Below are positions 32,629 to 33,425 of a stretch of 64,000 nt of DNA, piece after piece; position 1 is the stretch's first letter; every line of letters starts with the position of its first letter. The notes below the pieces were generated by a model. It had not been told where the DNA came from. It was given only the letters and a program-made list of their open reading frames with translations, and searched no databases. A program made the translations under genes and the position numbers. This DNA is from Escherichia coli (GTDB lineage: Bacteria; Pseudomonadota; Gammaproteobacteria; Enterobacterales; Enterobacteriaceae), in assembly GCF_003018115.1 (NCBI RefSeq), contig NZ_CP027457.1; one strand, written 5' to 3'.

Positions 32629-33425
32629 AACTTGCTCCTTAGCCGTTATCGTTTCGAACATGTCATCCTTTTCATTATTTACATCCTTGTCCGAATCGTT
32701 GTTCAATATAGTAAACGCCTATAAGAACTTTGCCCTTCGTGAACTAATACGTCTATTAACACTAATCAATACTTCAGATTTATCCATCACGCACTCCATA
32801 TATTGATCCTAAGTAAGATTCCTGGTTGTTATCAGCTTGTAAATAGTAAACAAAAAGTTAACGTTTGCGGATTACTGCCCAAGAATAAGTTATCAATAAC
32901 CAGTTTGTGATCTCTGAAGAATATTACTAAAGTTAAAATGTAATCCGATTTAAATATCGAGTCTCCTTGTTTCGACTTAAGCTGGCAATTGGATTGCCAG
33001 CTTTCTTTTAACGCATTGAAATTACCTGAGTAAATAACTCATTCATGTCTTCAGGTTTTTATATAGCATCTGGAGACACGGATATTTATGCACTGTAATC
33101 AACGCCAGTTGCAAAAAAATGAACCCGGATTACTTATTTAACCGCCCATATCATCAACGCTTACGGAACTCTTTGTTCACTTTCCCACAGCACTTTTAAA
33201 ACATTAAACCTGACTACGGAAAATATCAGCCATGATAATGTTTGAAATGGCTAATTTGCCATTGAATGAAAAAAATTAGATGAAATTCAGTAGGTTGAAA
33301 TAAGCATCAGCAGGTAATTATTTCAATGATAGTGCGCAACTGATCTACAACGCTGTGTAGCGGAGAGAGTATTAATCGGATCATAGTCACGTCAAGTGAC
33401 TATGATCCGGGTGACAACGGGATAA

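Follow-up and report, generated by a model that had tools for sequence, protein, structure and literature searches.

The long AT-rich gap upstream of gadE in an Escherichia coli window matches the known gadE control region and carries the antisense small RNA gene arrS

The gadE gene is the master switch of glutamate-dependent acid resistance and thereby of the stomach survival of E. coli, including ETEC and EHEC, and its control region is among the most complex in the E. coli genome. In a stretch of 64,000 nucleotides of E. coli DNA (contig NZ_CP027457.1 of assembly GCF_003018115.1; "the window" from here on), gadE is preceded by an exceptionally long gap that ends at hdeD, and we wondered whether this gap holds anything beyond the control region that is known from strain K-12. 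An earlier note, made from the sequence alone, had described it as an AT-rich non-coding region of about 800 bp in an unusually long intergenic space. Both points were borne out: the region could be delimited at exactly the positions given there, and with its 797 bp it exceeds in length all others of the 42 intergenic gaps that are annotated within the surrounding 50 kb and have a median of 83 bp. Its GC content of 36.0% is to be compared with 49.9% for the whole window. Since gadE itself has a GC content of only 33.0%, the AT-rich tract spans the gene as well as the gap and is wider than the gap alone. The positions of all features are collected in Table 1.

Annotation was based on the open reading frames of the window and on the RefSeq annotation of strain F8111-1SC3, of which the hdeD-gadE gap is 100% identical to that of the window. 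According to both sources the gene order is mdtF-mdtE-gadE-[gap]-hdeD-hdeA-hdeB-yhiD, with mdtF to hdeD on the minus strand and hdeA, hdeB and yhiD on the plus strand; the acid fitness island thus lies in the window as the reverse complement of its orientation in K-12. F8111-1SC3, which was called the closest genome, is 99.9% identical to the window over positions 8000-47816. At 47817-49552 the window has 1737 bp where F8111-1SC3 has 333 bp, and this extra DNA encodes a 337-aa membrane permease-like ORF (48103-49116, minus strand) and a 127-aa ORF (49148-49531, plus strand) that is predicted to resemble an ArsR-type regulator and adjoins arsC. The window thus comes from a strain that is related to F8111-1SC3 but distinct from it. 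Between arsR and a 406-aa ORF (52312-53532, minus strand) there are two Rfam AgrB matches (51837-51918 and 52069-52153, minus strand), which are probably agrA and agrB, the antisense regulators of dinQ; in F8111-1SC3 the 406-aa ORF is annotated as an IS200/IS605 TnpB and adjoins a frameshifted tnpA and dinQ. In contrast to K-12, the window has a chu/shu haem-uptake cluster in its acid fitness island, between yhiD and dctR (about 35790-45900), with a match to the shuA/chuA 5'-UTR RNA thermometer at 41652-41683 (plus strand).

Table 1. Positions in the window of the hdeD-gadE gap, its neighbours and the features within it. Numbers with a minus sign count upstream from the gadE start codon.
Feature	Position	Strand	Basis or remark
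mdtF	27467-30580	-	acid fitness island gene order
mdtE	30605-31762	-	acid fitness island gene order
gadE CDS, 175 aa, gene governed by the gap	32101-32628	-	ORF list and annotation; ATG at 32628
hdeD-gadE intergenic region, gadE(-mdtEF) multi-promoter control region	32629-33425		797 bp, 36.0% GC
hdeD CDS, 190 aa, upstream neighbour of the gap	33426-33998	-	ORF list and annotation; stop codon ends at 33426
gadE Shine-Dalgarno AAGGAG	32635-32640	-	read from sequence
T (-21) 5' end	32649	-	K-12 coordinate transfer
T1 (-124) start	32752	-	K-12 coordinate transfer
T2 (-324/-317) 5' ends	32952 / 32945	-	K-12 coordinate transfer
T3 (-566) start	about 33194	-	K-12 coordinate transfer
Conserved island 1: P3 promoter and T3 start	33186-33265 (-637 to -558)	-	80-100% identity per 20-nt bin; 93-100% over 33186-33245
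Conserved island 2: ArrS and its promoter, P2/T2 ends on the other strand	32886-33010 (-382 to -258)		81-100% identity per 20-nt bin
Conserved island 3: P1, T1 start, -21 end, leader, Shine-Dalgarno	32629-32825 (-197 to -1)	-	85-100% identity over 32646-32825
ArrS sRNA gene, antisense (in cis) to the 5' leader of T3, the longest gadE transcript	32940-33009	+	70/70 identical to K-12
ArrS intrinsic terminator, 11-bp stem (32979-33003), then TCTTTT tail	32979-33009	+	terminator scan
Putative ArrS -10 element CTAAAGT, 7 nt upstream of the annotated 5' end	32927-32933	+	sequence reading
E. coli-specific spacer of about 85 bp (about -387 to -472), between the P3 island and the ArrS 3' end	33015-33100		alignment gap; bins of 0-6% identity
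hdeD 3' hairpin, 14-bp perfect stem, 5-nt loop	33377-33409	-	inverted-repeat search
63-aa ATG ORF antisense to the gadE leader	32615-32806	+	ORF list; judged not a gene
26-codon upstream ORF MECVMDKSEVLISVNRRISSRRAKFL, only in the T2 and T3 leaders	32719-32799	-	ORF comparison; no coding evidence

The gap was compared with the corresponding 798-bp region of K-12 MG1655, which has the same flanking genes in the same orientation. In a global alignment the two regions are colinear, their lengths agree to within 1 bp, and 780 of 798 positions are identical (97.7%), the differences amounting to 17 substitutions and a single 1-base deletion at -791. Over its full length this alignment revealed no extra sequence in the gap relative to K-12. 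The earlier note had stated that its reading would be refuted if the gap proved identical to K-12 with no additional elements; the second half of this describes what we found, the first half does not, given the 18 differences. Of these, 11 are located in the hdeD-proximal 165 bp, and 15 fall in spacers that are not conserved and evolve fast. The three others, all substitutions, lie in or beside conserved parts, at -219, -104 and -31. At -104 the window has C and K-12 has T, and at -31 the window has G and K-12 has A; in both cases the state of the window is shared by all other lineages compared. The gadE coding sequence is identical to that of K-12 (528/528 nt). The gap is therewith the most diverged piece of the locus relative to K-12, at 2.26% versus 0% for gadE and 0-1% for the neighbouring genes.

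With respect to its distribution, the gap was detected in 5413 of 5426 complete E. coli genomes, always in one copy per genome, and with at least 80% coverage in 5406 of the 5426. It is 100% identical in three genomes (F8111-1SC3, O169:H41 strain 2014EL-1345-2 and NZ_LR882990.1) and 99.9% identical in F9792 and O169:H41 strain F6326-C1, while identity in the remaining genomes among the matches listed is at most 98.5%. At a level of at least 99% identity, the whole gap is shared by just 6 of about 5411-5413 E. coli genomes. Judged by its sequence, the window allele is one that matches ETEC O169:H41-type genomes.

In K-12 this region is known as the 798-bp gadE promoter or "sensory integration region" (Ma 2004, Sayed & Foster 2009 and Itou 2009, in the form in which PMC3708157 cites them). 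The gadE transcripts of K-12 have 5' ends at -21 (T), -124 (T1), -324/-317 (T2) and -566 (T3), and more than ten regulators act on the promoter region, which is repressed by H-NS; ArcA binds at P1 and P3 and antagonises H-NS (PMC3708157). Because the sole indel between the two strains is at -791, K-12 position -n corresponds to window position 32628+n, and the published 5'-end positions all carry over to the window without indels. Both the transcript ends and the regulator sites were placed in the window by this coordinate transfer, and for the fine mapping of the regulators we relied on secondary citations, in the extent to which these report it. The suggestion of the earlier note that the gap is the known complex multi-promoter region of gadE is thus well supported. 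In terms of class, the gap resembles the H-NS-silenced, multi-input promoter regions of horizontally acquired E. coli loci, as it is AT-rich (36% GC), long, and equipped with several promoters; this likeness is one of class only, and the repression by H-NS and its relief by activators are taken from PMC3708157.

How much of this architecture can be read from the sequence itself? P1, P2 and P3 were all missed by a simple scan for sigma-70 promoters, which returned 5 promoter-like sites versus 3.3 expected. Such a miss is unsurprising for activator-dependent or sigma-S promoters, and the placement of the three promoters has its basis in the K-12 data, with no independent support from sequence. 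Likewise, a scan of the gap with the 20-bp GAD-box consensus gave no close match; the best one reached 13 of 20 positions, so that no GadE site can be assigned from sequence. Elsewhere in the window a perfect 20/20 GAD box, TTAGGATTTTGTTATTTAAA, is located upstream of gadA at 23315-23334 (plus strand). The ccp (yhjA) cytochrome c peroxidase gene, which lies by gadA, is annotated in F8111-1SC3 as a pseudogene with an internal stop (2455979-2457376, about 21800-23200 in the window). As for the leaders, gadE mRNA is bound by CsrA (PMC11210196), and the four GGA motifs that we counted in the last 65 nt of the gadE leader would fit this reported binding. The predicted fold of the T1 leader was no different from that of shuffled sequences (z = -0.85), and the 5' part of the T3 leader folded better than its shuffles (z = -2.9). 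A 13-nt inverted repeat, CGGATTACTTATT / AAAATGTAATCCG (33126-33138 and 32935-32947), might pair over a long distance in the T3 leader and so form a helix that encloses the stretch complementary to ArrS; the distal arm of this helix is not conserved outside E. coli. A second inverted repeat, of 12 nt, lies within the P3 island (TTTAAAACATTA ... TAATGTTTGAAA, 33195-33206 and 33236-33247, 29 nt apart). It is near-invariant across all eight Escherichia sequences that we compared and looks like a protein-binding site.

The earlier note had also raised the possibility of a cis-antisense or 5'-UTR sRNA in the gap, and such a gene is indeed there, namely the already annotated ArrS. K-12 arrS (b4704; 3657985-3658054, minus strand, opposite gadE) is the sole annotated feature in the K-12 gap, and the window carries all of its 70 nt unchanged at the syntenic position, between the T3 start and gadE and antisense to the T3 leader. 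As far as the descriptions of K-12 ArrS in the citing papers go (Aiso 2011 and 2014, cited in PMC6755755 and PMC6212723), position, strand and terminator hairpin are the same, and there is no difference in sequence. The RNA has a predicted folding energy of -20.2 kcal/mol (z = -3.84 versus shuffles), and its terminator is unchanged across all eight Escherichia sequences compared; no other terminator-like site was found in 32500-33500, whichever strand was scanned. The -10 element that we propose for ArrS is recognisable in sister species, where it reads CTAAAGT, CTAAAAT or CTAGAAT, and with the C at -13 it would be of the sigma-S type. Expression of ArrS has been reported to depend on sigma-S and GadE (PMC6755755), and the literature describes it as dependent on acid, too. 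Of 5411 E. coli genomes, 5402 have the 113-nt block that contains ArrS at an identity of 99% or more; as judged from the sequences, ArrS shows essentially no variation within E. coli, in more than 5400 genomes, and next to none in E. albertii and E. whittamii. In the cross-species alignment, conservation ends 1-3 nt past the T tail of ArrS, a boundary that fits the view that the RNA gene is the unit of selection.

No Rfam family matched in the gap, either at E <= 1 (scan of 31000-35500) or at the gathering score (whole window). Since Rfam appears to have no ArrS family, the absence of a match says nothing about ArrS. The only Rfam match near the gap is a full-length match to ES205 (101 bits, 31912-31983, minus strand) in the gadE-mdtE gap, at the position of K-12 gadF, an sRNA from the gadE 3'-UTR. 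Opposite this ES205/GadF match, the RefSeq annotation of F8111-1SC3 has a "hypothetical protein" CDS on the plus strand (about 31822-32100; noted span 31804-32100), which seems to be a miscall on top of an sRNA gene. Further away, between gadX and gadW, GadY was detected with 150 bits (26020-26133, minus strand).

To determine which parts of the gap are under constraint, we compared it across Escherichia. The genomes were taken from a scan for GadE with one genome per species (E. coli, Escherichia sp. MOD1-EC7003, "E. coli" E69, E. whittamii, E. albertii and Escherichia sp. E1V33), and the comparison set comprised five other Escherichia lineages and a further divergent E. coli; in all, eight Escherichia sequences were compared. 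Four lineages, E. albertii, E. whittamii, "E. coli" E69 and Escherichia sp. E1V33, are the divergent, non-coli ones. Two contigs that bear the labels Flavobacterium paronense CECT 8460 and Streptomyces sp. DH24 also contain DNA of the E. coli acid fitness island, almost certainly through contamination of these assemblies with E. coli, and were excluded when conservation was calculated; the gap of the former is K-12-like and its gadE is error-ridden.

In the Escherichia lineages the gap has a length of 720-794 bp and a GC content of 33-36%. The alignment resolved three conserved islands, in which identity per 20-nt bin was 80-100% (mostly 88-100%), versus 74-76% at the third codon positions of gadE in the same lineages. 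Island 2 contains no difference between K-12 and the window, and the last 17 nt of island 3 are near-invariant. Between the islands, identity to the divergent lineages drops to 0-74% per 20-nt bin. One spacer segment, at 33015-33100, is present in the E. coli lineages, whereas E. albertii, E. whittamii, "E. coli" E69 and Escherichia sp. E1V33 lack it; as it is single copy in E. coli genomes, it is not a repeated mobile element. At the distal end of the gap, every lineage retains the stem of the hdeD 3' hairpin, in which two base pairs have changed in a compensatory manner (GA..UC to CC..GG). The hairpin is not followed by a U-run, and we consider it probable that it serves as a terminator or stabiliser of hdeD mRNA.

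Taken together, these data make us highly confident that the gap is the orthologue of the K-12 hdeD-gadE region, that is, the known gadE control region with ArrS, and that it contains no new element. Since no new element was found and the scattered point changes are mostly in unconstrained spacers, the finding is one that is already known: the observation is real and ordinary, and ArrS is already annotated.

The footprint also bears on the alternative that the gap is for the most part a functionless AT-rich spacer, left from the horizontal acquisition of the acid fitness island, in which the last ~150 bp or so serve as the promoter. About 40% of the gap does evolve fast (33266-33425 and 33015-33185, with the low per-bin identities given above), and its segment of about 85 bp is confined to E. 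coli. The two distal islands, P3 (-558 to -637) and ArrS/P2 (-258 to -382), are nevertheless conserved far above the level of synonymous sites, and deletion analyses, as far as they are reported in PMC3708157, show that the P3 region matters for expression. We therefore regard a mere spacer as very improbable.

An idea that fares slightly worse still is that the gap hides an unannotated small protein gene, either the 63-aa ORF or the 26-codon ORF, the latter regulating gadE from the T2 and T3 leaders. The earlier note had listed no ORF of 60 aa or more on either strand. This is correct for ORFs that lie wholly within the gap, but the 63-aa ORF on the plus strand, which starts 14 nt inside gadE, extends 178 nt into it. 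In the four non-coli lineages this ORF is shortened to 26-36 aa, likely by a 1-nt insertion near -68. As it is broken in these sister lineages we rejected it as a gene, and the label "non-coding" for the gap stands. On the minus strand, a mechanical ORF call with a TTG start extends the gadE frame to 32706.

The case for the 26-codon ORF is that it exists, that the block around it is strongly conserved, that an AGGA precedes it by 7 nt, and that its start, stop and length are the same in all eight Escherichia lineages. However, the chance of such retention under random substitution is 0.36-0.61 per lineage and thus not significant, and the substitutions do not show the pattern of a coding sequence: the variable sites are distributed 3/5/4 over the three codon positions, and there are 3 synonymous versus 12 non-synonymous changes, with no bias towards third positions or synonymous change. 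A 40-nt core of the ORF, which covers the P1/T1 start, is invariant at every codon position, which points to constraint at the DNA level. The ORF is furthermore absent from the K-12 annotation and from the candidate tables of an acid-stress Ribo-seq sORF survey. On these grounds it was rejected as a coding gene, and we think it most unlikely that it is translated so as to couple translation of the T2/T3 leader to gadE expression. A related feature is an in-frame ATG at -33 (32659-32661, minus strand), preceded at a distance of 4 nt by AAGGA. The window shares this ATG, which is created by the G at -31, with all lineages compared other than K-12, where the triplet is ATA; over the 72 nt directly preceding gadE, 3866 of 5411 E. 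coli genomes (71%) have the same sequence as the window. This ATG could, with low probability, yield a GadE isoform that is longer by 11 residues. All that speaks for these two readings is the retention of the reading frames, and this in a region where the DNA itself is conserved anyway.

Finally, an insertion or mobile element peculiar to this strain, or a rearrangement relative to K-12, might be suspected from the rarity of the allele (6 of 5413 genomes at 99% identity or more) and from the gap being the most diverged piece of the locus, but this is practically excluded, because the K-12 alignment shows nothing other than the point substitutions and the 1-base deletion, most of which lie in spacers whose evolution is fast between species, too, the gap is single copy in each genome with nothing repeated, and a search of the gap for the long direct or inverted (terminal) repeats typical of an insertion found none.

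With the gap read as the gadE control region, the picture that the literature would give for the window strain, to which we carry over promoter activity, regulator binding, silencing by H-NS and the mechanism of ArrS, is as follows. Transcription of gadE, and of gadE-mdtEF, would start within a long AT-rich region that is silenced by H-NS, from several promoters: P3 near -566, P2 near -324/-317 and P1 near -124, while the 5' end at -21 may be a processing product. Different circuits would act on different promoters, among them EvgA/YdeO, GadE autoregulation, GadX/GadW, RpoS, ArcA versus H-NS, MnmE, and others. From the opposite strand the 70-nt ArrS would be made, which is fully complementary to a part of the leader that is unique to the longest (T3) transcript. 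By pairing in cis with this leader, ArrS would induce RNase III-dependent processing, and gadE expression would go up. Cleavage of ArrS by RNase III has been found in vivo, which fits pairing with gadE mRNA in cis. In addition, ArrS would act in trans on cfa mRNA; it has been reported that ArrS also acts in trans with Hfq (PMC6212723) and that it activates cfa (PMC6755755).

Altogether, the gap is to be labelled as the gadE promoter region with arrS rather than as an unexplained stretch of AT-rich DNA. What the present analysis adds to the K-12 knowledge is the cross-species footprint, in which P3, ArrS/P2 and P1 with the leader are constrained and the spacers between them drift freely.
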